Assembly: GCA_964572255.1 (NCBI GenBank)
Contig: CAZNEE010000003.1
Coordinates: 118,539-182,538, forward strand
DNA: 64,000 nt
Origin: an uncultured Planctomycetia bacterium
Lineage (GTDB): Bacteria > Omnitrophota > Gorgyraeia > Tantalellales > Tantalellaceae
Reading direction: 5' to 3'
The notes under the pieces were generated by a model, which saw nothing but the letters and a program-made list of their open reading frames with translations, did not search any database and had not been told where the DNA came from. Shown piece after piece: positions 13,413 to 64,000 of this stretch. The position numbers were made by a program, and so were the translations under genes. Positions within the stretch are counted from its first letter, which is position 1. Each line of letters opens with the position of its first letter.

Positions 13413-13555
13413 AACTTATTGTTATCCCCATAACATTTATGTACTTTTTAAAGTTATTAGCTAATTCAAAGTGTAAAAGTCCCTTCATGTTTTTCTTACT
13501 TACAGAAAGACATTAAAGAGCTAACAAGCTTTTTATTTATTTAATGACTAATAAT

Positions 13556-34956: not shown

Positions 34957-35099
34957 GAGAACTAGCAAACTTTTTAAAGATTTTTATTAAGTGGTGAAAG
35001 CTTACTTTTCCCTCTTAACTTAAAAATATAAAATATTATAAATAAAAGACTTACAGGTGGAATCGAAAACGGTAAGATGTTATTTTTTAAAAAGATCAA

Positions 35100-35140
35100 A
35101 TAAAAAACAGGCTACTCTCTCGAGCAGCCTGTTTTTTGCT
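35100..35140 (-). terminator. Putative bidirectional intrinsic terminator after the >=9569-aa gene. A hairpin at 35108-35131 is flanked by an A6 run at 35102-35107 and a T6 run at 35132-35137.
   Basis: The plus strand reads taaaaaaCAGGCTactctctcgAGCAGCCTGttttttg. An imperfect ~12-bp stem is followed by a U-tract when read on either strand. It is the last of four stem-loops downstream of the TAA at 35262. Confidence 0.45.
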
Positions 35141-35256
35141 GGAAGCCAGCAGGTGTGGTAGTGGCTTCCTTTAGCTAGTATTGCATTTCCTGGTGCGGGG
35201 TTTTTCGCCCCGCACCAGTGCTGGAAGCTGGTAGGTGTCTGGCAGCTTCCATAAAA
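35139..35256. repeat. Cluster of three GC-rich hairpins directly 3' of the >=9569-aa gene stop. Two are copies of one ~30-nt hairpin element: ctGGAAGCCAgcaggtgtggtagTGGCTTCC at 35139-35170 and ctGGAAGCTGgtaggtgtctggCAGCTTCC at 35221-35250. They flank CTGGTGCGGGGtttttcgCCCCGCACCAG at 35190-35218.
   Basis: I read the inverted repeats directly. The two 8-bp stems are perfect and the central stem is 11 bp. Confidence 0.55.
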
Positions 35257-35261
35257 ATCCG

Positions 35262-41200: not shown

Positions 41201-44200
41201 CTTTTGCTTCCACTCCTCTACCGGTTGTACCTGTCATGCCGACAACATCATGGAATACCCTGCCGAAAAGGTTTTTAGTGTTTATTTCTGAAGATGACTT
41301 GCCTTCCGCTTTAACTATCACTTTTTTGCCTGCCGCCAATTCTTTAGCTTCAATAAGCTGCTGTATACTCGCTTTATCGGTACCGTGCAAACGTTGTCCT
41401 GTTGACTGGACACCTATCATCTTCTGTATAAGAACGGCGTCACCTCCGATAACCGTATAATCAACGCCTTCTCTGTACGCACGCGTGGCTGTAATAGCAT
41501 CCTGCATAAGCCTGACATAACTCTCCCCGCGGTGCATCCTTTCAACTATTGCTTCTTCATTATCCGCATTGTTAGTAATGAACTCTATTTCTTCCATTAT
41601 ATCTTTTCTGATAGAGCTGACCGCGTTATTTATATCGGCTTCAGTATATGGGGTATTTGATCTATTTAGCTGTTCCATCAACATGCTGCGGAAAAATCCC
41701 TTACCAAGCTGTTTCTGCATGAGCCTTAAGGCATCAAGGCGTTTCTCCCCGTAAATAGTAGCACTATTGTGGGCAACATCAACAGCGGCTATAATATCAC
41801 CCATTTTTCTTGTACCTGTTGGAGGCTTGGGTTTCTGGGCTTCTTCAACAAGTTCTGACACATCATAATCCGCTTCCACACTCGCAAGATGGGCCGCTAT
41901 GATCCTTGCCGATGATTCAACATCCATTTGGTCCCTTCCTTCAACCTGTATGAATGAGGTAAGCGCCTGATCTATCAGGATGCTATCGATCTCGTCAACT
42001 ACCAAAGACATGTTCTGCAGATCTGAAAGATCCTTACGTATCATGCGCTTATCACTCTCTATCTCTGACGTGTTAAAGTCCCTGTCGACATCAAACGCGA
42101 GTGTATCTATGGCAACAAATACAACATCCTTATCATACTCGTTACTCTTCTCGTCCTGGGATAGTTCTCTGGATATTCTACCGACACTTAAACCGGCTCT
42201 TTCGAGCACATTCTTAGTAGCCCTGTAGTTCCTCTCGGAAAGTATATCCTGCGTATCAACATAAATGGTACCTTTGCCGTCAAGAGCTTTGATGTAACAA
42301 TCCATAAGTCCAACGATAGATTTACCTTCGCCGGTCAACAGTTCCGCTATTGTCCTGGCGCCTTTCCTTGTCATCGCCGAAACTGTGGCTACCTGTTCTT
42401 TGTAAGGAATGAACACGCCTGTAGCCAGGGTAAGAAGCAGTGATGAAAGCGCGATCCTGTGCGCCCTATCAAAACCGGCAGTATCAAGTTTGTTATATTC
42501 CGCTAATTTGCCCTCAAGCTCTCTCTGGTAATATTCGATATCCGCAAGAGTTTTTGCTTCCTGCACTCTCTTCTTAAGCTCTTCTATCTGCCTTTCAAGT
42601 TTAATGACCTCCTGATGCTTGCTTGTCATCTCGTTAAGCATGCCGAAAAGCTGTTCTTTTCCTAATGATGTCGCGGCAAGGTCCACAACAGTGAGTCTTA
42701 CAAAACCATCTTTATCTTGCTTGGGTCTTCCGTACTCATACCGCCAGATCTCATTCATATCGCTTAAAAGGTCTATTGTATATCCTTCATCCAGCCTTCT
42801 TGCTATCTCAAAAGTATCGACAACATTCCTTGCCATGCCGGAAGCGCCTTTTGCTATCGTAACTACCATCTGTTTTAACAGTAATGAAGTTTTTCCTTCT
42901 TCGAGTTTCTTCATCTGTGCTTCCACTGTTTCACGGGCAGTGATTACAGAAGACCTCATGGTGGAAGCCAGAATGTTCAACGCGCCGGCAACAGTGCCTT
43001 CGGAAGTCATGGCCTCTCTTATATGGCCGGCAGCATCTTTTTCAAGCATGGTGATCAGATCATAATATTTGCCGGCAAACTCCGTCCGAAGCTCCGGCGC
43101 CAAGTCAAGTGTCGCCTTTTGTATCATATTCACAGCTTTAGCAAGACCATGTTCGCTTGTTATTACTTCAAGGAAAATATCGATCGTCCCGAATACATTC
43201 ACTATTGCTTCTCTGTTCTTCTCTATATGTGAAAGGATGTTTATGTAAAGTTCTTCTTTTCTCATTTCATTGATCGTGCTTTCGATTCTTTCGGTGGTTA
43301 TTTCGCCTCTTGCTATAGCGATCGCTAGATTCTTAGCAGCCATTGAAGAGGTCTGAGCATCATCTGACCTTAGGTCATTTAAGACGCTCGGATCTATGCC
43401 TAACTGAGTTGCCAGACTGTCGAGCACAGCTTCATAAGCAATGCCTGTGCCGGGGACGATAGTCTCGCTAAGCTTTATAATGGCGGTCTTAAGCATATCT
43501 ACCTGTCCCTTTATAGTGGCAGGCGCTGCCTCAGTGGAAACTCCCGCCGCAATGGCAAAAACTACAAGATCCTGCGATGCTTGATCAAGTTTGTTCTCGG
43601 CAATTAATCCATTTATCCTTTCTATCAAAGCGTTTTGGAAACTATCCGTCCCTATATCCTCTCTCGTACTTTCAATTAGAATATCACTTATCTCGCGGCT
43701 AAAGACACCTTGCATGAAAGTCTCCGCCACTCCGGCTCTTAATTGAAATTCTTCTACAGCCTTATCTCTTGCGCCGTCAATATTGTTCTCAAGTTTGTTT
43801 ATGTATTCACGTACAACAGGCGAATTGACCAGCCCTTCATATCTGGCAACATATTGTTTGATCTCCTCAAGATAATCACTGAACAACGCTTCTTTCTGAC
43901 TTTCTCTATATCTAGCGAAAAGATCTATAAAGTTTTCCTTATTCTGCAGGTTGTTAAGCGCTTCCTGTTTTTGAATAGCTGTAAGTTTTTCGTTTGTTAA
44001 TATCTTATTCATATTTGAAGCTATTCTTCTTGCCTTAGCGCCTGCGGTTTCTATTCCCACCCATCCAAGCACATGAGTGAAGATATTCCTGCTGATGAGC
44101 CCTTTTCTGTCGAGATTTTTGATATTTTCCAGCATCTGCTCGTGGATCTGCCCTAACTCCTCAATATCTTCAAGCTTGCTCGCCTGATTCTGGTAATCCA

Positions 44201-47200
44201 TAAGGTTCTCATATGCCGTCCACATTGCGTCCATGTTTCTCATTTTTCTGTCTATCTGCCTTAAACCTCGGCTGGTCGGAGCGTTCTTATCTGAGAACGG
44301 AGTGAATGCGGATTCTACTTCTGCCACTTCAATACCTAAGGCCGCTTTCAGGCGTCCCCGGAAAACACCAAAATTCCTGTCAACACTGTCAATGAGGTTC
44401 TCTCGCCTTCCACCTGCACCTTCAGATATGGCGCTATATATATCAGCCCTTGAAGACGTTGCCCAATGTTTAATAAAACTCCAAGCGCGTGCAAATCCTT
44501 TTTTGCCCTCACTCAGTTTAGCCGCTACTCTCACTGATACAGTGCCAGGTATGCGAGCGGTTAACCTTGATCCGAACTCATGTCCGCGAACAACTATATT
44601 GTCACCGTTCAAAAGCTCGGTTATTCCTTTGAGATACTTCACGGTAGTAGGACTCAATCCGTCCATCTTGCCCATAGCGCCTCTAAAAAGAACATCTCCG
44701 AACTTGCCGATCTCTGTACTGCGCCTTTGAGCGACATCCACCATTGCGTCATATTCTCGTTGTGTAAGCTGGAGCGCTCCGGTTCTTTCCGCATTCGCAA
44801 GACCCAACGTTTCTAATACCTCCTGGGTTCTGGCCATCTCTTCGCCTTCAAAGCTCTTAGCGTCAGACATCCTGTCACGTAAAGCTTCTGCCAATCTCTG
44901 ATCGAGAGGCACTTTAGCCAGCATCGCAGCACTTAATGCATCATCAACTGTGGCTTGCTTTACAAACTGACCGGTGATAGCGTCATGGAATCTGCCCGTA
45001 GCATCGTTATATCTATATCCGGTAAGCTCGGCTATACGTAGTTTATTGGAAAGCCTTACAACTTCGGCTGCACTTATGAAATCCCCTTTCTTCCTTGTGC
45101 CTTTCGCAAGTGCTTCGTGGTCATGCCATCTCTGTGTAGCTTCATTGAACCTTATGCCCTTACTGTCAAGTAATGCTATATTATCTTCTGTAAGCTGACT
45201 TATTCCTTCTATTTCAACAAACTCTACTGGCGCTATCTCAAGCTCCATTGTTTCGGCTCTTTCTTCGAGCTCTTTTGCTCTCCCTTCAAGAACTTTTATC
45301 TCATTCTCAAGGTCCCTTCTTTCGGCAAGCTGTGCCTCTGTTGCTCTTTCTCCCAGTTCTCTTATCCTTGCTTCAAGGGCTCTTAGATCTTTTACTTTCG
45401 CCACAGCTGTTCTTCTTGCTAGCCTCGCCTCATTTATAATATTATCAACTTCTGTTCTTATCTCCCTTGCTTGAACCGCATCAGAAACAGCCCCGATATC
45501 TTCTGTCCTGAACTCTATGCCCAGTAATTTCGCCGCGGCGCTAAGCTGACCGGCAGTGATCTGCCCGGAAATGATACTCTTGGTAAGTGTGGTAAGTATG
45601 TAATCATAACTGGCGCCTGCGGCTATACCGGTTGTCCTGTGAACTATAGCCTGCCAAAGTTCACGCGTATTATGTGCACCCACCTTATTAGTTGCGCTCT
45701 TGTAATTATTCAGTCCCTCCGTTTCTATCAAAGCTTCCATAACACGCGTATTTTCTGAAGCCATAAGAACTACAAGACCCTTCACTACTTCCATAAAACT
45801 GTCGATACTGTCAGCAGTCATGCCTGGATTAAGCGCTCTAAATACATTACTGAAGTGCGTAAATTCTTCTTTTGTATCCATCCTGCGTATAGCCAATCTC
45901 ACGCCTGCTGTCGCTTCTCTTCCTCCGATATCTCTTAAGAGATGATCGAACTGCGCCTGTGTAGTACATCCCGCAACCGCCGCGAAATTAATGACCCGGC
46001 CGGCATCTTTACCTCCTACAAGACCTTCTTCTCCTCTTGGTGTCATCAGGCATTCTACTATGTGATCAGCGACAAGACTGTCCTGCATGGCGACATTCAC
46101 AACTTCCGCGCTTACGCCCTTTGCGCTTAACGCCTCGTACATGGTCTCTATGCTTCCGGATTTAAAGATCGCGGCGTCAACGACAGTATCGACCTGGGCC
46201 GAAAATTCACTCATATTTATAACGCCCGCATGCGAAACGAAAAGATCCGCCAATGCGCCGATAGTTGCAACCCCGGCGGCACCCTGTTTGGAAAGTTTCT
46301 CAGTCCTATTTACAAGTGAATTGATCTGACCCGTGGCTATTCCAAACTTCTGGCCGATCTCTCTTATCTTTGCGGTATTCTGCCCGTCTGCTTTGAGCTG
46401 GCTTCCAATGATCATATTCTCCATCGCTCTCATGGAGGTGCAATCAAGCTCGGAGGACTGTTCCGCTACAGCTCTTCTAAAATGAGTCTTTCCTTCGGTT
46501 GTCATCGCATCAAAAGCACCGATAACTTCCGTGTTAATACCTAATTTTTCAAGGAATTGGTTGCCCTTGACACTGCCGATAAGTTCCGCTACACACGTGG
46601 CAACAAATACCCTTGAATCCATCAGGTTGGATTTGACATCAATGCCGCTGGTCAATATAGAAGCGTTAAGCATCATATTGTTCGTCATTCTGCTTATATT
46701 ATTGGAAGTTATGGCTCCGGTAGATATGCCGCTGGTTATCGAACTTGCTATTGAGGATCCCCATCCATTACTGATAAGGAAGGTATTGGCATCCGCTATG
46801 CTCATTTTGCCTGTTGCAATGCCCGTCGTTGCAAGATCGAGCGCGGCTATAGCCTCTATCCCGGAGAAATCGATCTGTCCGCTCTCTGTCATGCTTATCT
46901 CGGCAAAACGGTTATTATTAAGAAGATCCGCCATTCTGGTGCCGACATTATCTCCGCGTTTAGCGGCTTCCTGAGCGGCAGTACTTGTCTGGTTGAAGAG
47001 CTTGGTCAGCACTTTCATATTGTCGGTAGCTTTTGCTGAGGCTACGCTATTAAGTAAACTGCCGAGTTTATTCTGCTGGCCCTGGGTTAATTTTCGCACA
47101 CCATCTGTACTGGCCAAGTTGACAAGGAAAATAAGCTGCTGCGCATCTCCTTCGGATACACCGAAGTCTCTGGATACCTGCGCGGCGCTTGAACCGCTTA

Positions 47201-50200
47201 CTTGAGCATTTAATTGATTGAGGTTCTTCTGGGCAGTATTCATCCTCATGCTGTGTACAGGCATGCCGCCTGAGGCGACATCGAACATTTCAACGAAAAA
47301 TTCCGCGTATTCATCAGGCATCCACGCAAAGAGCGTTTTCCCTATGATAACTTCCTTGATGCCTTCCTCATATACGCCCTTGATCATTTTGTCCCAAATC
47401 ATGTTAACGCCTCTTCCTATGGCGCTGCCAATAGCGCGAAGGCCGCTCCAAAAGGCAACACCTGGTCCCTTGCCGAAGAGAGAACCAACTATGCCGCTTC
47501 CTATGGCTCTGCCCAAATTGGCAAGAGGTTTAAATACGGTCTTTAAAACTCCACCCAAGAAAGAGCCGAATGCGTGTATGACTACAGGCCCGGCAAAATG
47601 GAACACTCCTATAAATGCCCATCCCATAGGCGTGCTTAAATGCTGCACAAGGCCCATAAGCGGCCCGGAGGTTGTTGACATCTGAAGCAGCATGCCTTGG
47701 ATGCCTCTTAATATGCCTTCACGCTTAGCCATGATCTGCGTCATGCTGGCGTCACCAAAGAACGGTTTAAAGAGAAGCGCGCCGGCATGTAAGCCGAACT
47801 GCATGCCTATGCCCATGGTCACAAATGTTGAAGCGGCACCTGCAATAGTGAGAGAAGCCACCACTCTTGTAGCAAATGCCTGGGCACCTCTCCTGGCACC
47901 TACTCTATATATGTTAAGGAACAGTCCCCTGCCGAAGCCACCCATTCTTTTAGCTACAAACTTAAAACCCGATCTTACTGCAAAATAAACCCTCTTCGCA
48001 ATATTGCCTACGGCAAGCCGGAAACCGGCCCTAACGGCTGTTTGTTTAAGAATATTGCTTGCTATCCTTGTAGCCACGGTATTAAGTGCTCTACTTGCAG
48101 GCCCTACCAACCCGAACATGACCATCGCGTCGATGAGAACATTTGCCAGATCGTTAACCGTTATGTTGAAAATCACTTTTTGGCTAAGATATTCATTTAA
48201 CGCCTTCTCTGTCTTATATTTTTCTCCGGCAATAGCTGCCGTTAACACTAAACCAAATCCTGCTAAAGCGGCTATCCCTATACTTGCACTGCAAGTAAGA
48301 CTTAAAAAGCTTACAGTAGCGACAGTGGCAGCGCTGACACTCGCTCCTGCCGCTGCAGCAGCGCCTCCTACACCTAATAATGTCGGTATGGAAACAGCAA
48401 ACCCAACGATAAGTATAATAGCAGCTACTACATATCCGGCTTTTACCCAAAATCCGCCTTCCTGCCAATTCTTTATAAGTTGTTTAAATCCGAAATTCTC
48501 GGCAAAATATTTAGCCGCTGTGTCTGACACGCTTATAGTGGATTTATTCACAAGACCATTCTGCAGGCTTGCGTTAAAGGTCTGCGTTATAGTGCTGAAA
48601 TCGACTCTTGCTGTCCATAATCCACCGGTACCCACGTTGCCAAAGACTTGATGAACCCATGTACAGCCCCAATCACCGCTGACGTTCACATTATTCGTGC
48701 CGTCTACAGATCCTATTCGTTTACCGGTTGCGTCAACAATATTGCCCGCGGCGTCTACTGTGCCTTCAAATCCTTTAGCGCTATGGGTAAGACCCCTTTC
48801 AAGATGGCGGTGAGATATGCTTTCGAGATGCATGGCGTTGTCAAAAACAAGTGTCGTTATCTCGCCGTTCTTTGAGTCCGTAAGATTATGTCCTTCTCCC
48901 GTCACCATATCTGCCACTGTTGCTGCGGCATAACCAGTGGCTATTATTAAAAATACAGGACCGATTACAGGAATAATGCTTAAAGCTACTATGCCTACCC
49001 CTGCGGTAATTCGTCCGAAGATACCCTTCTTGTCGGCCTCAACAAGCGCATATACATACTTGATCTCACCATCTGCATTGGTCAGCTTTGCCCTTGCTTC
49101 AACCTGGCCTATATTGTCCTTATTGGGACTATGGAGCGTCATAGAACAATCATAGATCTCAACATGCGCAATCGCTGAACCCGTTGCCTTAGCCATCTCG
49201 GAAGCTTTTTTTGCAACAACCCGATCGACCTGTACTTTTTGGTCATTATTAAGATTTCCGTAAGAGATCTTCCCGCTCACAGAAAAACTTGCCTGGGAAG
49301 CATCAAATATAGCAGAGGTGCTTTTCCCTTCCTTTTCAACGGTTCTTCCCGGAGTGAACTGAACAGTAAAACTTTCAAACGCGTCCAAATTATCGCCGCA
49401 AGCCTTGGTTAGCTGTTTTATATTGCAAGCTTCTACGCCCAGGGATTCAGCCATAGCCACAACCGCCTGAGCGCCCTTCATTCCGCCTTCTGTAACCACC
49501 ATTGTGCATGTAGCTGAAAAGAGTTGCGTCGCGAGTCTATCTCCCCTCTGCATAGCTATTTTATTTAATACAACACTAACATTTACCTTAACGCCCTCTA
49601 CCGTTACATCACCCTTAACAGCTACTGTCCATTGACTCAGTCTTCGGGTATCATCTTCGCCGTCACGGGTCATGTAATCACCAACAGACACTGTTTTGCC
49701 GGAATCATAATTTTTACTTAATTCCAATGTATGGAAAGTAACCCCATCCTTTCCCACTCTCATAAAACCAAGATCAATTTCGGCGATACTATTGCCGTCT
49801 CCGTATAGAGCCATTATCTGGGAAAGTCTCTCACCTTTTATATCGAGTTTAAACTTAAGATCAGATCCTTCGATGCTGCCTATAAAATCACTTGCTCTAA
49901 GATCCGGGACTTCCGCAAGAATCTCGCCAAGGCCCGAACCTCTGAGCATATTAGTAAATTCATTTCCAGCAACTCGGCTGAAACACCAGGATTGTGCATA
50001 TTCGTCGAAACTAAGGCTATCACCGCAATTTTTTAAGCCCGAATATGCCGTCTGACCTAAACGGTCTTCTTTCCCGGTTACAACATAATACGCGTTCTTC
50101 TCTTTAAGATATATGCACGACATTTTCCTGCCGCCTGCAGCGGCTGTCACGAGATTGTCCAGCACAATGTTACAATCTTGATAATCTTCTTCTCCTAAAA

Positions 50201-53200
50201 GTTTAACCGCATAATCGATCTTGGTTATACCCAGAAGTCCTTCCAGGGCAAACTGTTCGTCAGTTGTCAGCTCATCCACTCCATCAAGTTCAGCACTGGC
50301 GGCTTTCATGATCTTGATGCTCTCTATCTTGAGATCGCCTTCCTTCTGACTGCTGGCAATAACATCTTTTATGCTGGTAAGAGTAACCCTGCCGCTCGGA
50401 AGGTATTTAGTTATACTTTCGATCTCTTCCCCTCTTCCTATTTCAGTAGCAGCGTCAAGAACCGTAAGGTCCTCGCCTTCTCCTTTTAAAGCTGTGGTAA
50501 ATATGATGGATGATTCCTGATCCTTCTGATAAAGTATCATTCTGCCCTTTAACGGTTCACCGGTTTCCTGGTCTATTTGATACACAACAGCGATGCGTCC
50601 GCCACCAGAAAGCTCTGCAGATTTACCCGGGATCTGTACGAATAGCGGTATCTGGCCTACTTTATAACCGTTTGAATCTGCCTGATAAAAAGCGCTCTTT
50701 TCTGTAATGCCGAATGCACCGAGTACCGCTTCAGCAAACTTTCCATCTCCATATGCCAGCTCTTTCTTGTTGGCAATGGATATACTTTCCTCAAGGATAT
50801 TTTCCATCTTAACCGTTTCCGTTTTGCCTTCAACTTTGGTCGTCATGGAATACTCTTCATGATGTTTACTTGAATATTCAAGCCTTAATTCAGTGAATAC
50901 TGCCTTCGCTTTGTATCCTTCGGTGAATGACCCATCTTTCTCATCAAAAAGCGCATCACATTTTGCGATCGCAAGAATGGTCGCGACAAGGCTCATCGGC
51001 CTGCCATTATCTATATTGTATTTGGCCCTTGTAGCGTTATTTGCCCGGAAAATATCCACAACATCATACCCGTTTATTTTATTTAATCTGCCGCTTATCA
51101 TCTCGCTGAAAAATTTACTGTCAACGCTCCCGTCAGCATTGAACCCTTCATCCATCGATGCCATGAGCATAAGCGTGCCGAATGTGCTTAGTTCTTCCGT
51201 ATCAAATTCACCGGTAAATTTTTCTTGCGTGAGTGAACCCGCAATGATTTTATTCATAGCCGTCTTGAATTCAGCTGCTGTCTGCGGCCCTCCTTTATCT
51301 TTATCCGCGAGAGCTTCCATCCTTGAGAGGAACTGCTTCTTGTCCCCAGAAGAAATGATCCCCATGAATATCTGAAAATTGCTGATCTCAACGACTTCTG
51401 CTTTCTCGCCCAAAGCTTCATTAACAGCATTCACGGCTCCTTGCACCTTACCGATATCATCTTTGGTAACTTTAGCGGTATCAATGCCTTTAAGGAAACC
51501 GCTCATCGCGTCTCCCTCCATTCCGGAGAGCATCATAAATACCTGGAATGTATCCGCTTCAATATTTGCGACCTTGGCACCCTGGATCACCTTGTTTACT
51601 TTTTCATCGGTAACTGTACCAAGCCTTGCATTGCTTATTGTAGTTTCGCGTAGTTCATCATCCATGCCGGCAAGGGCCATGAATATCTGGAAGCCGTTAT
51701 CCTCGAGATTCATGTCTATTCCTTTTATATTGTTGGCCCCGTTAATTACATCTTTTACATCCCTTCCGCCCACCTTATTGTTTTTCATGTTATCAAGTGT
51801 AGCCCCGCGTTTCTCCCCGTCCATTGTTGCAAGCGCCATGAATACCTGAAAAGCGCTGGTCTTTATATTCTCCTTACCGGCTTTAGCCACGACCAGATCA
51901 ACATCCTCTTTCTTAATACTGTAAGCGTTATCGACAAGATCATCACGGCCTTCTTTGCCCATGCCTGCCAACGCCATGAATACCTGGAAGTCGCCGACAT
52001 CCGTTCCCGCTCCTTTTAATCCCCAGGCAACTTTCGATACTTTCTCTTTTGTGACCTCGCCGGCTCTTATATCAGCCAGGACCTCGCCTCTCTGTTTACT
52101 GTCCATGCCGGCAAGCGCCATAAGTACCTGGAAGCCTCCGGGTGTTTTGACCCCGGCATCCGTAGCCTTACCGATCACATCATTTACGTCTTTCGCGGTA
52201 ATAAGCCCCTTCGTTATATCGTTCAACGCGCCTTCGCGCTGTTCATCACCCATGCCTGCAAGCGCCATAAAGATCCCAAAACCGTCCTTTTCAAAAGTCA
52301 TGTCAAGTTTCAGCTCTTCCCCGGCAAACTTGATCACATCGCCGATGTCCTTACTGGTTATCTTTGCGCCTAAAGCGCTGGAAAGTATATTACCCCTCGA
52401 TTCATCTCCCATGCCGGCGAGAGCCATGAATACCTGGAAGCCGTTATCTTCAAGATTCATGTCTATCTTCGCGCCTTTAGCGCCATTGATCACGGCCTTT
52501 ACCGCATCCGCAGAGCTTATTCTCTTGCCGTTTACAATAGTATCTTTACCCATGCCGGCCAAAGTCTCTGTCCTTGTTTTGTCATCCATACCTGCAAGCG
52601 AGAGAAATACCTGAAATCTGTCAGCTTTTACATTAGCTCCCTCGGCTTTGGCCATAGCAAAATCGACATTATCCTTTGTTACCTTGCCGTCTCTGGTGTT
52701 AGCCCATGTAAGGCTTCTTGTATCATCATCCATGCCGGCGATAGCCATAAGCGTCTGAAACTCATTTATTTCCACTTCCGCTCCCGCGGCCGCCTTTATA
52801 ACCGAATCATATACATACCCCACCCTTGAAGAGAAAATATTATCAATGACTTTCGTGCGCGTTTCATCATTCATGCCTGCAAGCGCCATGAATACCTGAA
52901 ATTCACCGACTTCAATATTTCTCATTTTAGCTTCGAACATCACAGTATCTATTTGTTCTCCCTTTACTTTTGCCGCGCCTGCTAATACTTGAGCTCTTCC
53001 TTTATCATCCATGCCCGCAAGCGCCATGAATGCCTGGAAACCTCCCACTTCCATGCCTATCTCTTTAGCAGCATCGACAATCTTAGAGATATCTCCTTCA
53101 AATACCTTCCCGGCTTTGATATTGCCTATCATAGTGGCTCTGGCACCGGCATCCATGCCGGCCAACGCCATGAATACCCCGAAGCCATTAACTTCAACCT

Positions 53201-56200
53201 TGGCTTTCTCGGCGCCTTTCAGCACGTCATTTACCATATCGGTCTTAACTTCGCCTCGATTAATACTATTAAGAATTTTGCTTCTTGCAGTATCATCCAT
53301 GCCCACAAGCGCCATGAAGATTCCGAACCCGTTCGCTTCCATATTCATATCAAGACCGGCTTTATTGGCACCGTTTATCACCTGGTTTATCTGCACATCG
53401 GTCACCTTGCCGGATTCTATGACACTTAACATGTCGGAACGCGCTTCCGCACTCATACCGGAAAGCGCCATGAATACCTGGAAGTCGCCAACCGTTACAC
53501 CGACCTTTTCTGCCCCGCTTATAACAGTACTTATATTTTCTTTAGTTATGCCCAATTGCCCGGTATCTGCCTTAAAAACGAAATCGAACCTTGCCTTTTC
53601 ATCCATACCTGCAAGCGCCATGAATACTCCGAAATCATCAGCAATCACTCCGACTTTAGCTGCAGCCCCTTGAATCATCTCGACATAAATGCCCATTTTT
53701 GAAGTGCCTCTTCCGATCACCTCGCCGTCTATCACTATATCCTTCGCGGGTTCTAACTTGCTGATCTTACTCAAAAGATCTCCCCTGGCTTTGTCATCCA
53801 TGCCTATTATTGCCGTAAATGCTTGGAACCCGCTGATATCCAGTTTTGCGTCGCTGGTTCCCTTGAGTATGACCCCGATATCCGCCGCGGTTACCTTGCC
53901 GGCCTTAACATTGGCCAAAGTACCCGCGCGATCTTTATCGCTCATGTTGGAGAGCCATGAAACGATCTGTATATCCGAAACACCTTCACCGGTAATTCCT
54001 TCAACGCTGTCTCTTATGGGACTGATGAACTCGCTTCCTACCACGCCGAGGTTTCCGCTGTAGAATTTGCCTTCATTTTCTCCCTTACCTATTAATACGG
54101 TTCTGGGATTATAAAGCGCATCCAGCCCCCCCATGAAAGTCCAAACAGCATTGCCCGCACTGTCGGTAAGCACTGTGGAATCCACTGCGCCTGCCTGATT
54201 GGCCAGCGTTTTAGCTAATGCCGTCTCTTCAGCGCTTAGATCATCTGCATAAGTAACTTTGGCCTGGCTTACTATCGCCCTGAAAGTGTCGCCCATGTGA
54301 TCCACTGTGGTTACCTGTCTATCAAACCCGAAATTGACCAGGTGCTTGCCTTCGCCTTCTCCGCTGTAAATATCATTGGATGCGATATCATGGATCCCTC
54401 CTGCGGGAAGTTCGCTGAATCTTGCTCTTCCGCCTACAAAATGCACAACACCTGACTGTACATTCATCTTCTTCAGCCATCCCTCAACCATCGCTTTGTC
54501 ATTGCCAAGCAAACCTTTCAGGTCTATATTGGTTTCCCGCATCAAAGTCTGCACATTAAATCCGTTGAGGGTGAGTTTGCCCATCTTATTGTTATTTATT
54601 TCAAATGCGAACTTTTTGTCTCCCACATTTAGCTCAATGGATTGCGTCGTCAAAACCTGACCTAAAGAGCTGATGCCCCAGATCTTTGTCGTGGATTTCC
54701 CGACCACTTGCCCATCTATCTTTATGTCTTGCGGAGGCGTTTCTATTGCTGCACCACCAGCCAGTTTAAGGCTTCTTCCGCCGTCCTGGACGGTGAGTTT
54801 ATATTCTGTGCCTTTGACATTAATGGCAAATTGCTGTTTTCCGCCCAATAGATTTTCTTCGGTAAAGAGGACTTCTCCGTTCACCACATTTATAGTCACA
54901 TTTATAGTCACACTTTCACCGGGAATATGACCGGGAAGTATAACTTTTATTGACGCTATTGCCGGGCCGGAATCTGTAAATACCGGAGTCGTCCTTCCGC
55001 CTTCAATACCCGAAAGGTTCTTAAAGACTACGGCGCGTCCCGTGACAGCATGACGCACTTTTGTTCCGTCCGGGAAGATCGGCGTGCCTGCTTCATCAAA
55101 ATCTACCGTCACACTATCCTGATCGACTATATAACCTCCCGCTCCAGTTCCTCTCATGAAAGTAATATTATTTCCAGTTAGTACCAGGCTGTTCCCTATG
55201 AACCAGGCATGCCCGTTTTCTCCGATAGTAACGCCGTAAAATCCGCCCGCGGCCAAGCTGACTGTCAAATTCTGGGAAAGTTTTCCTCTTGGCAGTCCTG
55301 CACCCGCAGCGCCCTCCCCGGACATATTTATTGCCTGATCGGATGGGGTATGTAACAGATCTCTATCTGAAGCTGTGATCCTTCCAATAGCCGAGCTCAT
55401 TCCATATTCATCTATTTGTATGCCCCAGATCTCCGCATCAACATTCGCAATGCCCCCGCCGGCCGCGTCAAAAGTGGTTCTGGTCTTATAAGCCGCTCTA
55501 TCCGCCACAAGCTGTGTTACATTCCCTGAAACTGTGAATTTCATGCCGTTAATAGTAACGATCGAGCCGTCTCTTAATTCATCGCCCATCTGGTCCTTAA
55601 GGCTCTTAAATACAGAGTAAAGCAGTGCTCCGGATATTGCTTCATCAAAGGTGAGCGATATATCAACAACGTCTTTTACCGCGAAACTCTCGATCTCGCC
55701 TCTTAAAGCCGTAACTGCCGCCTGGAGTGCGCTCACTTCAGCTTCCGGCATCCTCTCCACGACGCCGCCGATTAACTCCCAATCATCAAAAGCAGCTGCC
55801 AGTTCCGTAGCCGCTTCTGATACATATTTACCTTGCGCACTGTACTCAGAAATTCTGGCCGAAAACTTCGCTGCTATTTCACCAAACTCTTTATTGATGC
55901 CGATAAAAGTTTTCTGTCCGAGTTCTGTCTTGGCAAGAGCATCCATGCCGAACAGCTCAACCATATTACTCATGAAATCCAGCCTGTATTGGTCTCGGTC
56001 AAATCCGGAAATACGCTCACCGGTTTTTGCGTCAAATGTTGCCACTTGATCACCTTCGGGTTCAAAATAAGAACTTAAGAAAGCTGTTTCTATGACATTA
56101 ATGCCTTGTAATTTTTCCGATTCAAATTGAAGGCTATTAGCCTTTGCGAAATTAGCCTCAAGGTTCTGCCCGAAAGCCAAAACGGCAACGCCTATCATCT

Positions 56201-59200
56201 GCAATGCATCCGGCTGGTCTTTGAACGCATTCATGAACCCGGTTTTCTTACCGATTGACGATGAGACCAGGCCGAGCCATCCGCCCAGCATCCTGAACTT
56301 GCCGTCATCATTGAAACCGCCGACCGAGATCAAATTAAGGAATGAATCGATGAACTTGCTGTCCGCCATTATGATCTCGAGTGCGTTCCTTGCGGTAATA
56401 TTCTTAAAATCTATGTTCTTGCCGACATATTCGTAGCTGGTCTTTATCTCCAGCATGGTGAACTCATTAAGGCCAGCAGCGCCGGCTTTATTAAGCAATT
56501 TGATATGCGCGCCTGAGAGAGCCGCGAATACATCGCCTGCCCCTTTAAGGCCTCTTAAATTATCAGATAGATACATCATGGAGCCCGCGATCATTGTCGC
56601 CATATCTCCGACTTTAAACTCACCTATGTGGCCTTTGAGTTTACCAAAATCCATGTCCATCAATGCTTCGACCGCGCCTACATATTTCAGCGCCACCATC
56701 CTTGTCATCACACCTTTGGCAATAGCCAAACTGAGGCCCGCTTCGGTCTTTTGCACGGCATTCTGGAAACTCGACTCTATCATCGCCAAAAGTCCACTGG
56801 ATATCTCTTCGCCGTTGGATAAGCCGGCTAAAATGGAATTGTTTACGCTTACAAGATTGGAATTAAGACCTCGCTGCGTATCGAAATAACCTTCGAGAAC
56901 TGAAGCGAATTGATCTTTTGTAAGGCCGCTCTTTCCTGCAATCTGCAGGATATTCCAGTTATTCGCCATGAGATTGTCCATCGTAGATATAGCCTTTTCA
57001 GCAACCTTACCGGTAAAAGAATTATTATTCTTTGCCTGCAGGATAGACTGTACTACATTGTTCCCGGCATTCTTTATAATGCCTTGTGCGGTTTTGATCA
57101 ATGCGACATTCCTGGGATCAGCCCTGACAATGTCTTCGGCAACGTCACCGATCTGATTATATATACCCAAAGCTAATTCGGTATTGCCTTCAGTTGCGTT
57201 CAACGCCTGAGCGAATAACGCCTGTGATAAATATTTGCCGAGCGCGTCCGCTCTTTCCGCGCCGGTCATCTCAATAGTCCCGCCTAATAGAGCCTGAACA
57301 TCTCTTTCTGTAGACAGCAATGCATTTGTGATTAATGTTGCGACCCAGCCGCCAAGAGCATCGACCTGCTGACCAAACCACTGTGCTGCCTGTGTAGAAA
57401 CCATTTCTAACCCTTTTTCTATAAGACCGGCAAACTTCATCCCCCATTCACCAAGGTTTCTCAGAAACATCGCGGCCTTGACTTCCGTAGGCGCCGCCTT
57501 TAATCTCAATTCTGTCCTGTATTGCTCGATCGTCTGGCCCGTTCTTGCAAGATGTTCTTCAACTCTGCGCTCTGCTATCGCTTCCATGATCTTCGGAGCT
57601 GAAAGTATAGTGGCAAACGCGCCGGCAAACTTGCCTGACCATATATCAAGCATTCTCTGGAAAGCTGTCTTCTCGGAAGATTCCTTATATGCCGCTTCGT
57701 GCCACTCTTCATCCTCGCCAAGTGAAAAATCGGCAAACAGTTCATACATCCGTTTAGTAATATACCTTTCCAAGCCCACTTTTGCGGCGGCAGTAAGAAG
57801 CATCAGAAACGGCGTTGCCGCTTTAGGTGCCATCGCAGCCATTTCAGGCCGATCGGGTTCACTTAATAATTGTCTCGTCTGGTCCGCCTGTGTTACAAAT
57901 GTGGTTACAAATGTGCCCCATACCAGGCTCCAAACGGCTATCTGCTCGTCATTCAAGCCCCAATCTTCGCCAAGGGTGGAGATTATTGACGTACCGATCT
58001 TGCTTAATGCATAAGCTGTTGCCCCGACTGTGAATTGTGTCGTGCCATATACCCCGAAATACTGACCTCCGGCAGATTGTATTGCTTGCCCTCCGGAACT
58101 TGCCAGAAGTTTATCTGTTGCAGTTTCAGGTGGCTTCGGGGAGTCTCCTAGCGCAGTCTCCAAAGCCGAAAGTATTGACTGGAACCCCAGACTGAAGGCG
58201 ACCATGCCTAACGCCTCATAGAAATCCTGTGCGCTTATTCCCAGGAATCCTTCTCTATCACTCATATCCTCGGCTTCACGTAAGAGCCACCTGCCGAGAG
58301 ATATGAAGGCAAGCCCTACTATGACCCTGAAAAGAACTTTTGCTGTTGTTGAAGTTATGGTGAAAAATTTCTCGATCGCCGCTAACTTGTCGGTGAACCA
58401 GCCGCCGATCCAGGAGAGGAGTATAGAGTTAAGTATTCCCTGGTACCACAATCTGAAGGCGGTGGCGTGGTCCATGCCGAACCAGGCGGTATTTATCTCC
58501 ATCCTTACAAGCTCGACTGCGGCGGTCACCATGGCTGTCGCCCAAAGGGCTGCCAGAGCTGTTGTCGCGGCACCCGCAGTATATATAACAAGTACTACTT
58601 CTATGACTGTAAGAAGTATCTGGATGAACTGCATGAAGCCTTTTCCGGTCACCCATTCCTTCTCCCAGAGGGTCTTGATGTCTTTCCTTAAGAGCACGCC
58701 CGTTATGCCGTAGAAGAAGAACTCTCTTTCCAGGCTCTTGGATTTGGCCGTCATCTTCCGGCTTACTCTCTGCTTGGAATATGTATATACGGTCTGGCTT
58801 AATGTATCGCCGAAGGCGTTGTATTCAATGTCTGACAATACCCGCAAAGTCTTGATCTTGTCGCCAAGCGCCTTGGTAGGATTCTGGCTAATATACGAAT
58901 ATATTGAACCAAACAAACCATAAGTACTCTCCGCCAGCCCGGCATAATATTCTGCAAGTTCCGAAAGGTTGCTATATCCCCTGTTTTCCCATTTATCCAC
59001 TTTTTCATAAGTAATGCTGTATGTGGTGTACCCTTTTACGCGGCCGAACATGTCATATTGATAATCATAGGCCCATGTTATCTGACCCCATTCATCGATG
59101 GTCGTTTGTTTTTCAAGCCTTCCGAACTCATCGTACTTGCTGTATTCAATTTCGACCGTTTCTTCGGTATCGGTCTCGACTTTGCCGCTTTCCTTGACGG

Positions 59201-62200
59201 TTTCCTCTTTTGTTATGGTGGTCGTTTCCCTGATAATAGCATTACCGAAGGCATCATAAAGAATGGTCTTCGTCCTGATGGTCTCTGTTATGAACTTGAT
59301 CTCGCCGTCATCGCCTCTTTCGATGCGGGTGGATGTTATGAGGCTTTCGATCGGTCGGTTATTCTGGTCATACGCGACAACCTGGGCGATCTCTATCTCT
59401 GACGTCACGGAATCGCCTATCGTATATGAGAACCAGCTTACGGGGTTATTGCTCTCATCATATAATGTGCTCTTCTGGACAGTGGTATTTGTGCTCCTTC
59501 TGGCAAGCGGGATCTTTACATTCCCGATCTCCATGCCCAGAGGATCAAAGCCTACATCCCTTGAAACTTCTACAAAATCCTGTTTATTGCCGTTCGTATC
59601 ATAAACAATGTCCGAAACCTTGGCAATGGAAGTAAGCCCCGTTATTCCCGCCAGCTCTTCTTCCCCGGCCCACTGCTCCGTCCAAAGCATGTCTTCGCTC
59701 ATATCCGTGTAGCTCTTGATATTGCCGCTCTTATCATCGTATACAGTGCTCAACCTTTCGGTGTAAGAGCCCGTTAAGTACCTGTCATCCTCCGGTATCT
59801 GGGCTTTTACAAGATCCGGAAGATCTTCTATATTAGAAGGGGTCACGGTTATATCTTTGTTCACGGTGATGTTAGTCTGCTTATAACCTATATTGTGATC
59901 GGATGAATCATATGCCATGTCCTCCATTATAAGGACATCTTTTGTGGGCACCCATTCATAATAATAAGACGAGCTGCTGCCTTCCGCGGATTTGATGCGT
60001 CTGATATATTCACTATGAGGTCCATCGGGACCACCATAAAATACCAGGTCACCCTGCTGTTGATATCCCTGAACTCTTGACATGACATCGTAAGAGACAT
60101 TAATGCGTTCTTCCTGAGCATAGCGGATCATTTCATTGTTCGCATCAATACCGGGCAGGTTCTCGGGATAATCATCATCTCCAAAATCCAGCCCGATCCA
60201 TCCGTCCTCATGCCTCACAGTGGTATGAGCATCCGCCCACTGGGATTCCTTCTCATCTTTAGTGTAAGTTTCCCACCCTGTCATCCTTCCAAATTCGTCA
60301 AACACAACATCTCTTTGTATGTATGTCTCCTGCCGCCAGGTCGGATATTCAACCAGCCACTCGCTGCCTCCATGCAGGTTAACGGCATTGTCATTTAAAT
60401 GATGTTCATTTACCGCATTGCTATAGGTAAGCGGTCCGATCGTATCTTCGGCCCAGAAAAGAAGCGCAGGCTGAAATCCATCAGTAACAGGATCAATATC
60501 AGCGATGAATTTGTTTTCGTAGAAATGTCCGAACTTGGTCGTGATCTTCCGGAAACTGGCCCACTCATTAAGAGAATCGTATTCTATATCGCTGTGGTTA
60601 GGTGTGATGCCAAGAATACCGCCAACCGTAGTAACAGTTATGAAATCATCATACCGCTCGACCCGATCCCTGGTCGGACTGTACCTTTCAAGATCTTTTG
60701 TCTCCGTAACGGTGTAGCCAGCAAGCCTGCCAAGATCGTCTACCCTGCCGTCCTGTTCGCTGGTCACTGTAACGTATTCACGATCATTGCCCGTAAGCAT
60801 CATATCCATAAGGCCGATAGTTGTGACAAAGTTCCCGTTTTTATAGCTGTATGAAGACATGTCCACCATCTGGCCGAGGCTGTCGTACACCAAGCCTTCC
60901 AGTCTAGTGTATTCTTCATTGAGTATACCGGTAATGATCGCCATCCTAAGGCCGATATCAAATCCCGGCAGTGTTATATCATCGGAGCTTCCCTGACGCG
61001 TTAATGTGCCGTTTGTCATTAAATTACCGAAGGAATCGTAAGAGGCCATGCGTGAATATTGTGTTTGCAAGTCAGTTAATGGTGCAATAATATCAATATC
61101 GTCAAGCGGAGGAGGAAGGGGCAAAGTGATAATATAAGTTAAATTTTCCTTCTTTGTTACGTCTGTTCTTAAAGCCCGGCCTGAAGGTGCGATAACATTT
61201 GTCTGTTGTAAATATGTACCTCCATAATTCATCGGCACGCCTTGTGAATCTTGACGGGAATGATCTGAATCTATTCCCCTCTTCCACTGATCTAAAGTAA
61301 CAGTTTTAAATCCGCTGTCATTTTCAATTACACTATAAAACTGTACATCAATAACGCTGGCATCCCATATCCCATTATATAAATGGGTGCCGTAAGCATA
61401 AGCGCCGGACTCAAACCATTGTTTTAAACGCTCCAGCTCGGCATCATCGGTCAGATCATATTCTGTAAGAAGATAATAATCTAACGGCCTGTTTGTCTCC
61501 ATTTGGAAGATCTTCTGGCCGTTTTCGTCATAAACAATATAGCTGCTGTAATTTTCGCCCCTTACCGGAATATCCACTATGACCAAGGTCTTTGTAGGAT
61601 CAGCTTGCGCGCCGGACCATTTTTGTATATTTGCAAGGGAAGACAAATTAACGCTTCCGTCAAAGTTAGTTTCACACACTCCTGTAACAATATCAGTTGT
61701 ATCGCTGACCTCAACATTGTAATTAACGTAGCCGGAGTTCTCCGTAAGTGTATTTGTCGTGCTTTCCCAGTTTCTTTGGGCCGTGCCCGCAAGAGCGGTA
61801 TCCACCAGCTGGCTTGCTATTTCGGCATTGGTAAATACCCCTGAACTTGCAATGATCACGGGGTCGCCTGTACGAAGGTCGGTAAGCTCCCCCCTGGCGC
61901 CGGTCTGCCTTATCGATATGGAACGGACATCGCCGAAAGAGTCGATGCGCTGGAGCATCATGGCAGATCGATCATCGTAGCCTATATGCGAAAGACTTAT
62001 CTCCTTATCATAAAAATATTCATCTGTCGTATTGGCCTGATCCGTGAATACATCGTGCAGGACCCCGTCACCGGAAGAGTTCTGATAAACGATGCCGCCT
62101 TTATTATTAACCGTTACAGGATTCCAGATGTTCCCCGAGGGTTCAAAAGTCTTATCGGCATATACCACATGTGATGTCTCTCCATTAGGAAGTTCAATAG

Positions 62201-64000
62201 CCTTGGTAAGTCTTAATCGAACATCACCGCCGGTTCCGGCAAGAATATATGCGCTGTACTCCTGGCCAAAAAGATTTATTACACCGAAATTATCAGGGTC
62301 ATAATCATAGTTCCATCCCCATGTTCCGCCGTAGCCAAAGGGATCCGGCCAAAATACATTTACCCCGTAATACACTGCATTACTGAAATCGACCGTTACA
62401 ACTTCTGTTCCGTAAGTGAACACCCATCTTGGGTAATCGTTGCTGCCGTAAGTCTGAAAATCGACCTGATACGTGCTTGGAAAGAATCCAAAAATACTGT
62501 CTTCATCATAAAACGTATGCAGTTGAAGTCTTTCATAATCATCGGGGTAATCAGAGATATACTCGATCTCGCCGGTTATTATGTCATTATCGCTTGAATC
62601 TTTTACTCCTATGACATTTCCGTCATCATCGAAATCAAATTCATAACCTTGCGCGGAAAATTCAACCAGTTTCGCGAATTCAAGCTCGATGTTATGGGCG
62701 TTCTCAAGTATCACGACATCGCCCGTACTGTTTTCGGTAATTATGGGGTCGGTATTAAATGTTATTGATCTGCCTGTCCCCCAATCTACCTCTATTTCAA
62801 CAGAGGAGGTATAAAAATTATCATCCTCGTATGTATTGCGTTCAAGGATCCTTGCATCGTGCCTTATCCCGCCTCCGCCTCCCGCAACTACAAAATTACT
62901 TCCGGTAGCAGGCCTGTCCACCTGATAACGAAGCATATCGGGACCGTTGCCTTTAAAATCTTCTCCCGGATCCGAATCATCGTTGAAGTTATAATACATT
63001 CTTAAGTCCTCTTCGCCGAAATCAACGCCATTCTCAAATTCATCCTCAGCCCTGCCTCCCGGGATAAAACCGGAGTCGCTGGTATAGAAAGCAACCTCGC
63101 CTAAAATACCTTCAAACGCCTGACCGCCTTCAAATCCGCCGCCCACGCTATCCTGGTCCTGTCCGAATACAAGCGTACCGCCGTTATTGATCAAAGCCCC
63201 TGTTTTAAATCTGCCTCCGTATTCCTTTATACCATCCACGTAAACTTCCAGATTATCCCAATCCGGAACCGTAGTGTTCCACCACCTTACCATTACGTGG
63301 TGCCATTGGCCGTCATTGACATCCACGCCCGTATCTCTTGAATCATTATCAATATGGATCCTCAAGTTATTACTATTATAGATCAGAAATTCATTGGTAT
63401 GGCCCGGTACAGCATAAGAGATTATGCCGTCACTACTGTCAGTGGTCTTGATCCAGAACGAACAGTCTAAGTTCCTTATGCCATTTTCTCCAGGCGTCGG
63501 CGGGGATGAATCGAAGAAGCAATCAACTGAACCGTCTGAAATAGCATAGCTGTCCACAGTCCCGTTAAACCCGAATCCTTTTTCAGGTACGCGCGCTCCT
63601 CCCCATGTCACCAAGGTAGGATAGCCATACTTTGTCAGCAGATAATGGCCCTGAAGAGCGGGATTATCTCCTTGATATTCCCTGCCGGCGGAATACGGAT
63701 CCCATCTCCAGGTGTTCAGGTAGTCGGTAAACTCTTTAAAAGTCGCGTTAGCTTCCTCGGGACCTGAAACATAGAAAACATAGTCCTGGCCTGAAAGCTC
63801 GTCAGTGATCGTGTATCTGAAATTACCTTTATATTTACCGCTTGTTATATTCTTTATCTTGGCGGTCGCCAGTGAAGTGCCGTCATTGGCGATGAACTCA
63901 TAAGGCACTCCCGTCATCCTGTCCAAGTCAGTATTAGTAGATGTAGGATAGATGATGCGGTTACCGTGCACATCATATAGTGTGGTTAAAAAAGCGCCTG
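35262..64000 (-). CDS. Giant protein of at least 9569 aa with a probably partial 5' end. Order of parts: pentraxin/LamG-like lectin domain, YD/RHS-like repeats, TM region, beta-rich adhesin-like region, ~18 tandem 50-aa repeats, hydrophobic Gly/Ala-rich blocks, coiled coils, embedded SecA-like ATPase, C-terminal TM region.
   Basis: ORF track gives 9569 aa from a GTG at 63971-63969. I translated 63972-64000 on the minus strand (..[18 protein letters not shown]..) and found no stop. The frame is therefore open to the window edge, and the real start is probably beyond 64000. The TAA stop is at 35262-35264. Confidence 0.85.
   Translation of the reverse strand, partial: [9578 protein letters not shown]
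40300..42660 (-). other. SecA-like preprotein-translocase ATPase module (NBD1, PPXD-like insert, NBD2, helical scaffold) embedded in the >=9569-aa ORF.
   Basis: Motif-level matches to canonical SecA. Walker A is ELLTGEGKS (coding at ~42325-42340), against [29 protein letters not shown] matches ITYGTNNEYGFDYLRDN. Walker B is [19 protein letters not shown], against [59 protein letters not shown] matches [45 protein letters not shown] matches [18 protein letters not shown] matches [40 protein letters not shown] (coding at ~40660-40720) matches [28 protein letters not shown]. Confidence 0.75.
47200..48700 (-). other. Gly/Ala-rich hydrophobic multi-helix block of the >=9569-aa ORF.
   Basis: The translation reads [71 protein letters not shown] and [30 protein letters not shown] and [26 protein letters not shown]. 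The antisense ORF 48004-48651 is A/V/L-rich as expected. Confidence 0.5.
51100..53930 (-). repeat. Coding tandem repeat array: about 18 imperfect units of ~48-52 aa (DNA period ~150 bp), consensus [43 protein letters not shown].
   Basis: The plus strand shows a recurring core, catgccggcaagcgccatgaatacctggaa, at ~51500, 51661, 51830, 51960, 52130, 52250, 52420, 52590, 52730, 52875, 53010, 53150, 53300, 53455, 53610 and 53800. In the protein, [45 protein letters not shown] and so on continue to [13 protein letters not shown]. Antisense plus-strand ORFs at 51379-54063 show the mirror repeat MPASAMNTWKP. Confidence 0.85.
58300..58720 (-). other. First TM cluster of the >=9569-aa ORF, immediately after the YD-repeat region.
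   Basis: The translation reads [44 protein letters not shown], then [14 protein letters not shown], then [19 protein letters not shown]. Confidence 0.55.
58800..62600 (-). other. YD/RHS-like repeat region, a putative beta-shell.
   Basis: Many YDxxG(N/R) repeats fall between residues ~450 and 1720: [72 protein letters not shown]. A DPLGM motif ([13 protein letters not shown]) also occurs mid-region. Confidence 0.5.
63070..63620 (-). other. Pentraxin / Laminin-G (ConA-like lectin) domain at the N-terminus of the >=9569-aa ORF.
   Basis: Residues ~120-300 read [127 protein letters not shown]. The GQDQDSxGGGF..F.G.lgEV core matches the pentraxin/LamG_3 signature; human CRP and SAP have LGQEQDSFGGNF..SFVGEIGD. 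The GQWHHV residues are coded at 63311-63294. Confidence 0.55.

Follow-up and report, generated by a model that had tools for sequence, protein, structure and literature searches.

A degenerate YD-like β-hairpin array with an inserted pentraxin-type lectin domain ahead of transmembrane helices in an Omnitrophota-type giant membrane protein

Introduction

Runs of β hairpins with YDxxG(R) turns characterize the RHS/YD shells, as in the Rhs proteins of type VI secretion systems (7q97 and 8qja), TcB-TcC of the Tc toxins, and Escherichia coli RhsA. Teneurins (7ban and 7bam) likewise combine a YD-type array with a membrane tether, presumably for cell-cell recognition and not for toxin delivery. Here we analyze a related arrangement in a 64-kb stretch of bacterial DNA (64,000 nucleotides [nt]; positions 118,539 to 182,538 of contig CAZNEE010000003.1, assembly GCA_964572255.1), referred to below in its entirety as the window. 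Its minus strand consists of three tandem giant open reading frames (ORFs A, B, and C), all on the same strand, and the region under study (58800-63620), which corresponds to ORF A residues ~117-1724, holds a pentraxin-type lectin domain and a YD-like array that runs up to a cluster of transmembrane helices. The novelty lies in finding, within an Omnitrophota-type giant membrane protein, a YD-like array that lacks RHS machinery; the general class of such proteins has already been described.

The giant Omnitrophota proteins of that class have numerous transmembrane regions, a divergent SecA_DEAD domain without the scaffold and wing domains, PPDK-type domains, and sequence that is largely unannotated (bioRxiv 10.1101/2023.11.21.568195). 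In giant, transmembrane-rich, SecA_DEAD-bearing members, an RHS-like antiparallel β-helix of ~1,500 amino acids (aa), predicted to form a hollow "tubule," has been reported (West-Roberts et al., bioRxiv 10.1101/2023.11.21.568195). Type II secretion/pilus genes are reported in the neighborhood of giant genes in the same study. The membrane-threaded architecture was generalized, and a SecA_DEAD architecture cluster reported, in a further study (bioRxiv 10.64898/2026.06.07.730766). Omnitrophota-like giant genes are almost wholly unannotated. For the question of how their products make contact with other cells, the region analyzed here offers a testable handle in the form of a genuine pentraxin-type lectin domain, which could be expressed alone.

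A degenerate YD-like array ahead of the membrane

ORF A (35262..63998, minus strand, like all features within the three ORFs described below) comprises at least 9,578 codons, contains both the lectin domain and the array, and runs past the window edge on its 5' side; we number its residues from the GTG at 63971 as residue 1, from which 9,569 aa are encoded. A degenerate YD-like β-hairpin array spans residues 805-1735 (58767..61559), as delineated by a cluster of motifs, invariant alignment columns, a profile derived from RhsA, and Foldseek. Residues 814-1651 hold 11 of the 17 matches of a YDxxG-type regular expression in the whole of ORF A, and the YDxxG(N/R/Q) motifs are retained from one family member to another. 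Many of the columns that are invariant across four family members fall within five motifs (YDSFG, YDSLGQ, VDxLGR, YDSLN, and DxxGR), and an extra YD-like hairpin, EYNAFGD, is found at ~1712, just ahead of the transmembrane helices. The motifs recur at intervals of ~50 aa in the first half of the array and of 26-47 aa in its last part.

From 19 repeats of E. coli RhsA, we derived a 22-residue profile that scored 16.7 bits with 11 matches on residues 800-1740, where none of 20 composition-matched shuffles exceeded 2.9 bits; the profile reported no match elsewhere in ORF A (7,829 aa) or in ORF B, and it gave 10-14 bits on the homologs. The array is most RHS-like in the ~230 residues ahead of the membrane, above all in residues 1501-1635 (59067..59471), a stretch of long predicted β hairpins (predicted local distance difference test [pLDDT] score, 65-88) picked out by Pfam, NCBIfam, BLASTP, hhalign, and AlphaFold. 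For this 135-aa piece, RHS_repeat (PF05593) ranked top among 24,736 Pfam models (E value, 0.0021; 18.9 bits), and RHS_core NF041261 was the only match among 18,950 NCBIfam models (E value, 0.0072; 14 bits, compared with a cutoff of 2000). BLASTP aligned residues 1521-1645 with E. coli RhsA residues 562-685 (E value, 0.004) with the YD motifs in register, and a comparison of the family alignment with RhsA by hhalign gave an E value of 4e-4 with a probability of 34%; in both alignments, one YD motif after another stays in register for ~130 residues. On the longer 1,990-aa piece (residues 1-1990), the RHS/YD models gave nothing at an E value of ≤10 (Pfam) or ≤1 (NCBIfam). A search of PDB sequences retrieved pentraxins only, and BLASTP detected no internal repeats. 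As judged from these comparisons of sequence, the YD repeats are genuine yet degenerate, and the RHS-like signal is weak but specific.

The array was also modeled twice with AlphaFold2, in both cases from shallow alignments. Model 1 (residues 541-1740; 11 sequences) has a mean pLDDT of 47 and is confident in two places, a small α/β domain at ~770-860 and hairpins at ~1500-1650, the latter with strands of 9-16 residues, 5-residue turns, and pLDDT values of 65-88. Model 2 (residues 1400-1735; 3 sequences; mean pLDDT, 48) contains the same hairpins at pLDDT values of 64-77. Neither of these low-confidence models shows closure into a shell, and within the array, only ~1500-1650 appears as confident hairpins. 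The α/β domain (61392-61664; pLDDT, 70-89), which straddles the border between the array and the scaffold that precedes it (see below), is the best-predicted part of model 1; it displays the motif SYIVYDxxGQKxF and is conserved in six metagenomic homologs, and it has no Pfam family.

When model 1 was compared by Foldseek with 350,542 PDB chains, the top five matches were all Rhs or teneurin shells (E values of 6e-7 to 7e-4), namely, the Rhs core 8qja_C (E value, 6.4e-7; probability, 0.98), RhsA 7q97_A (E value, 2.4e-6), teneurin-4 in 7ban and 7bam, and the Tse15 Rhs effector 8uxt. Rhs proteins were also the top two matches of model 2.

An inserted pentraxin-type lectin domain

Residues 164-297 (63081..63482) form a pentraxin-type LamG (concanavalin A-like) lectin domain, recognized in both Pfam and PDB sequence searches. 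Three Pfam models pass their curated thresholds here: Pentaxin (55.6 bits against a cutoff of 25; E value, 7.3e-15), Laminin_G_3 (45.2 bits against 27.6; E value, 1.4e-11), and Laminin_G_2 (23.1 bits against 22.9; E value, 1e-4). The closest PDB sequences are neuronal pentraxin-1 (6ype; E value, 1.4e-16) and neuronal pentraxin-2 (E value, 1.3e-15), followed by SAP and CRP. An earlier note on this DNA, made from the sequence alone, had proposed just such a domain, and these matches confirm it. The domain contains the pentraxin calcium-loop motif GQDQDSVGGGFEGGQAF, and its loop FGQDQDSVGGGFEGGQAF pairs in the alignment with neuronal pentraxin-1 LGQEQDTLGGGFDATQAF, a loop that in pentraxins is the calcium/ligand site. 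We infer from these motifs that the domain probably binds calcium and a ligand.

The loop GQ(D/E)QDxxGGxFxxxQAF is common to the ORF A domain and the neuronal pentraxins; the ORF A domain differs in being a single inserted copy within a nonpentraxin scaffold. LamG/pentraxin domains of the same kind occur in many bacterial multidomain surface proteins, and a word-indexed protein search with residues 1-1740 recovered only LamG/pentraxin proteins, which covered 7-15% of the query. The domain has 0 occurrences in the account of the giant Omnitrophota proteins (bioRxiv 10.1101/2023.11.21.568195).

Alignment with two homologs that do not have the domain, P0033 and P0030, places it in an inserted segment at ~125-380 between conserved flanks. 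A third homolog, P0029, carries a Laminin_G_3 domain (E value, 1.5e-19) elsewhere, directly before the block that matches ORF A residue 957. Given this insertion relative to P0033 and P0030 and the other position in P0029, the lectin domain is best seen as a shuffled accessory with no fixed partnership with the repeats. The lectin-plus-YD pairing described in the earlier note was therefore rejected as a set architecture. The same note had placed this pairing at the N terminus of the protein. What lies there is instead the edge of the window: the frame is free of stops from 63971 up to base 63998, the window end, and residues 1-116 align inside P0033 and P0030, so that the true N terminus of ORF A must lie outside the window.

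The conserved scaffold and its homologs

On the N-terminal side of the insertion, residues 1-120 (63612..63998) are a conserved β-rich segment that continues a region beyond the window and aligns with P0033 residues 32-139 and P0030 residues 1524-1617. On its C-terminal side, residues 381-804 (61560..62831) form a conserved β-rich scaffold without a Pfam family, defined by homology to P0028, P0030, P0032-P0034, P0036, and P0037. The scaffold is rare: a HMMER search with residues 541-1740 found 10 matches at an E value of ≤0.001 among 1.84 billion representative proteins, all of them short or partial metagenomic proteins. A word-indexed protein search with residues 330-1740 alone and then with the family alignment gave no matches; a genome contig collection yielded no relative with either a single protein or the alignment as the query; and nothing was found in viral contigs (exact 40-mers and the family alignment), in phages by tblastn, or in plasmids by megablast. 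The sole match in a metagenome contig collection was a contig that was already known, SDBU01021829.1.

The family members come from the Loki's Castle deep-sea sediment metagenome (SDBU01021829.1), from JGI and ENA metagenomes, and, in one case, from a protein of a metagenome-assembled genome at NCBI. The last, P0030 (MDP3789770.1, from a Candidatus Omnitrophota bacterium), is the only homolog with an organism name. Upstream of the shared scaffold, residues 1-1500 of P0030 consist of Tyr-rich repeats (…TKSITYYxGNVGEEQQDYTVRYSNG…YYYYG…) together with an ILEI domain (E value, 1.3e-8), which offers a clue to the kind of sequence that could precede the window in ORF A. On SDBU01021829.1 (686-6283), LamG, a YD-like array, a transmembrane cluster, and a short C-terminal region make up a stand-alone ORF of 1,865 aa, with the next gene 20 nt after it; its TTG start stands directly at LamG, so its true start is uncertain. 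On the basis of this ORF, the module appears to occur outside giant ORFs as well.

Transmembrane clusters and a SecA-like ATPase after the array

Directly after the array come ~4 hydrophobic helices (residues 1778-1937; 58161..58640), and BLASTP aligns ORF A residues 1418-1859 with P0029 residues 895-1396 through this cluster, so that the junction of array and membrane is conserved. Two further hydrophobic clusters lie at residues 4984-5388 and 8644-9020 of ORF A, and ORFs B and C have clusters too. These calls come from a Kyte-Doolittle scan and not from a trained predictor, and the helix count is uncertain. The junction coincides with a sharp compositional boundary: the block of residues 1-1750 is unlike the remaining 19,000 residues of the window, and the change falls at the first transmembrane cluster. 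Thus, Tyr, Asp, and Ala account for 6.5%, 9.6%, and 4.3%, respectively, of residues 330-1740 and for 1.7%, 6.0%, and 11.1% of ORF A after residue 1740.

After the array and the first cluster, ~7,600-7,800 more residues follow in ORF A. At residues ~7117-7770 (40662..42623), ~5,400 residues downstream of the array and embedded between the second and third clusters, there is a SecA-like ATPase, supported by Pfam (SecA_DEAD E value, 2.8e-33; P-loop_SecA E value, 5e-15) and by SecA in the PDB (E value, 3e-35). Neither a wing/scaffold domain of SecA nor a preprotein-binding domain was detected, and no other SecA family matched in Pfam at an E value of ≤0.1.

No RHS core or adjoining toxin

Searches with the NCBIfam RHS-associated core models found no core domain after the repeats and none in a 120-aa context around a DPLGM sequence within the array, and the motifs RYYxPxxGRF and ETGLxY occur in no ORF of the window and in no homolog. 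No C-terminal toxin directly follows the array; hydrophobic helices stand in its place, and the later Pfam domains of ORF A are SecA-like only.

The DPLGM sequence (59532..59546), which the earlier note had likened to the RHS autoproteolysis site and placed at residue ~1390, in fact lies at residues 1476-1480. It occurs once in 21,053 aa, for which 0.75 such matches would be expected. Its counterparts in the alignment are DEKGR (P0029) and ALRGQ (P0031), which have nothing in common with it beyond the G and a flanking GF. We rejected it as an autoproteolysis site because it lacks conservation as well as a core context or RHS-core motif alongside; most likely, it is the FDxxG turn of one more degenerate YD repeat and not an RHS cleavage site.

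Other parts of the earlier note fared better. Its order of repeats, transmembrane helices, and thousands more residues of ORF A agrees with what we found, as does its statement that no RHS core plus toxin comes after the repeats, which reinspection upheld. Of the profiles that it named, Pentaxin and Laminin_G_3 score above their cutoffs, whereas RHS_repeat stays below threshold (18.9 versus 22 bits) and no RHS core is matched. Its YD repeats are retained as clustered, conserved YDxxG motifs with a RhsA-derived profile signal; as members of a curated family they are not, given that no model reaches threshold. In the same way, the likeness that it drew to teneurins, Tc toxins, and RHS proteins survives as a resemblance of β hairpins and fails as family membership. 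The β-shell that it envisaged gains no support from the two low-confidence models or from Foldseek matches to Rhs shells that do not superpose.

Comparison with known systems

The RHS/YD shells supply the best Foldseek matches for the array and the best (subthreshold) Pfam and NCBIfam matches on residues 1501-1635. The array differs from them in falling below the family thresholds; in having no core, no conserved DPxGL, and no C-terminal toxin; in its spacing, with motifs ~50 aa apart over much of its length compared with 20-40 aa in RhsA; and in being followed by a transmembrane cluster and thousands more residues. Teneurin YD shells are accompanied by an NHL-type β-propeller, a plug domain, and a C-terminal toxin-like domain. 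None of these companions was found by Pfam in residues 1-1990, where pentraxin/LamG is the only match, and ORF A further departs from teneurins in its bacterial origin and in a membrane anchor that is C terminal to the array. The kinship to RHS, Tc, and teneurin proteins is therefore a resemblance only, since family membership fails every curated criterion.

The giant Omnitrophota proteins of the "Archaeovorin" and "Dockerin" types are similar in several features. As in those proteins, the window presents very long ORFs, repeated transmembrane clusters, largely unannotated sequence, and a divergent SecA_DEAD domain without the wing and scaffold; an RHS-like β region is also present, likened to their β-helix by description only; and their PPDK-type domain has a counterpart in PEP-utilizers_C of ORF C. 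Their genes, however, exceed 90 kb and 30,000 aa, whereas the window contains three ORFs, separated by promoter- or terminator-like sites, of at least 9,578, 7,013, and at least 4,471 aa; the first and the third of these continue past its edges.

Functional interpretation and alternatives

We lean toward the view that the block ahead of the transmembrane cluster is an extracytoplasmic, membrane-tethered module for surface recognition or adhesion, belonging to a giant multipass membrane protein of the Omnitrophota type. A rare conserved scaffold of long β hairpins with degenerate YD-type turns would display a pentraxin-type, probably calcium-dependent lectin domain inserted into it, and the conserved transmembrane cluster would tie the array to the cell membrane. 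The module would then bind glycans or envelope polymers of another cell and would not cage a toxin for storage and release. The earlier note had likewise suggested target or cell-wall recognition and not toxin encapsulation, and a recognition role does fit better. A location outside the cell is likely in view of the composition of the block, its lectin domain, and the need of the ATPase for the cytoplasm. We infer this location rather than read it from the topology because the N terminus lies beyond the window and the transmembrane count is uncertain, so that neither a signal peptide nor the topology can be established.

This uncertainty is one of several points that weigh against the preferred reading; the others concern the nature of the array. 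No curated YD/RHS model reaches its threshold, including the best of them, RHS_repeat. Family profiles searched against PDB sequences led to Rhs at an E value of 0.09 only or to nothing, and there was no RHS_repeat match in the five of the 10 HMMER matches that were domain scanned. The mean pLDDT values of 47 and 48 leave residues 880-1440, which are most of the array, without a confident model, and the Foldseek matches fail to superpose in three dimensions (template modeling score, ~0.08; root mean square deviation, ~35 Å), a failure that we attribute to the poor AlphaFold models. The Foldseek ranks are, moreover, not independent of the YD motifs because Foldseek scores amino acid similarity too.

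Much the same evidence bears on the possibility that the YD likeness is convergent or compositional and that the region is a string of β-rich adhesin domains that use Tyr-Asp-x-x-Gly turns and are unrelated to RHS. In its favor are the failure of every curated RHS/YD model, the want of any protein identifiable as RHS among the HMMER matches (as far as the five scanned go), the nonsignificant comparisons of profiles with the PDB, the lack of internal repeats detectable by BLASTP, and a region rich in Tyr, Asp, Thr, and Gly. Composition alone, however, does not reproduce the signal, in that the matched shuffles fall far below the real sequence with the RhsA-derived profile. A merely fortuitous likeness also sits poorly with RHS_repeat and RHS_core coming out, respectively, at the head of and alone in the large model collections, with YD motifs kept in register by BLASTP and hhalign, and with five best Foldseek matches that are all YD shells. 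We regard this explanation as unlikely, although it is the strongest of the alternatives. Somewhat less likely again is that the array is the hollow antiparallel β-helix "tubule" of the Omnitrophota giants, which would protrude as a stalk or conduit with the transmembrane cluster as its base and the lectin, inserted into the half farther from the membrane, as a targeting domain. RHS-like β-helices of ~1,500 aa have been described in giant transmembrane-rich SecA_DEAD proteins (bioRxiv 10.1101/2023.11.21.568195), and the length, the context, the Omnitrophota relative, and the long regular hairpins of the AlphaFold models all fit, but the predicted secondary structure gives no clear sign of exterior helices at regular intervals, and the ORFs of the window, compared by description only, are individually far shorter than the giant genes of that study.

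The array might also close into an RHS/Tc/teneurin-like shell around a polypeptide, giving a noncanonical membrane-tethered cage analogous in bacteria to the teneurin shell, with the helical segment at ~1650-1705 or part of the region upstream of the window as candidate cargo. All of the top Foldseek matches are closed YD shells. The YD-like region of ~930 aa is within the size range of the known Tc and Rhs shell structures, and in model 2, ~55 nonhairpin residues with predicted helices separate the last two hairpin groups. Set against this are the lack of RHS core, plug, or protease motifs, the ~50-aa spacing in the first half of the array compared with that in RhsA, two models that do not close, and Foldseek matches that do not superpose on them; we consider such a cage improbable. 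A more far-reaching conjecture, to which we give equally little credence, sees in the family a previously unclassified bacterial group in which a toxinless YD-type array is fused C terminally to a membrane helix bundle. The array might be a hollow stalk or conduit, targeted by the lectin, on the surface of a giant protein that achieves its own export with its SecA-like ATPase. It would be a prokaryotic counterpart of teneurin cell-cell contact and might serve as a channel linking a predator or epibiont with its prey.

The rare scaffold family appears to reuse YD-type hairpins without the RHS toxin machinery and to join them to a transmembrane cluster by a conserved junction. If the array is a true RHS-related fold, bacteria would be seen to employ YD repeats in membrane-tethered surface structures as well as in toxin cages; if not, the case shows that YDxxG motifs by themselves overcall RHS.

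Genomic context

Downstream of ORF A lie ORF B (13817..34858), which is complete and encodes 7,013 aa, and ORF C (3..13415), which encodes at least 4,471 aa and runs past the left window edge. The GC skew is negative across the whole window, and no tRNA or Rfam family was found in it. The two intergenic gaps are nearly equal in length, at 403 nt between ORFs A and B (34859-35261) and 401 nt between ORFs B and C (13416-13816), and they align with each other at 65% mean column identity. In the A-B gap, there are a terminator-like hairpin with a 16-bp stem (35137-35102) and a near-consensus extended -10 promoter, TTGACA-16-TATACT (34956-34929); the B-C gap contains the promoter-like TTGACA-16-TAACAT (13583-13556). 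The idea that the three ORFs are one interrupted gene was rejected because of these promoter- and terminator-like sites, which are consensus matches only, and because a stop codon stands directly before the starts of ORFs B and C.

ORF B has zero Pfam matches at an E value of ≤0.01 over all 7,013 aa and contains ~15 hydrophobic segments; an identical protein is present in NCBI, JGI, ENA, and Logan (four contigs, the longest of 261,370 bp). In ORF C, Pfam recognizes PEP-utilizers_C (8805-9488; E value, 2.7e-29), a SprT-like metallopeptidase motif (7986-8120; E value, 1.7e-7), and a NAGPA phosphodiester glycosidase domain (4524-4748; E value, 3.5e-8), and these three domains thus share one membrane-threaded ORF.

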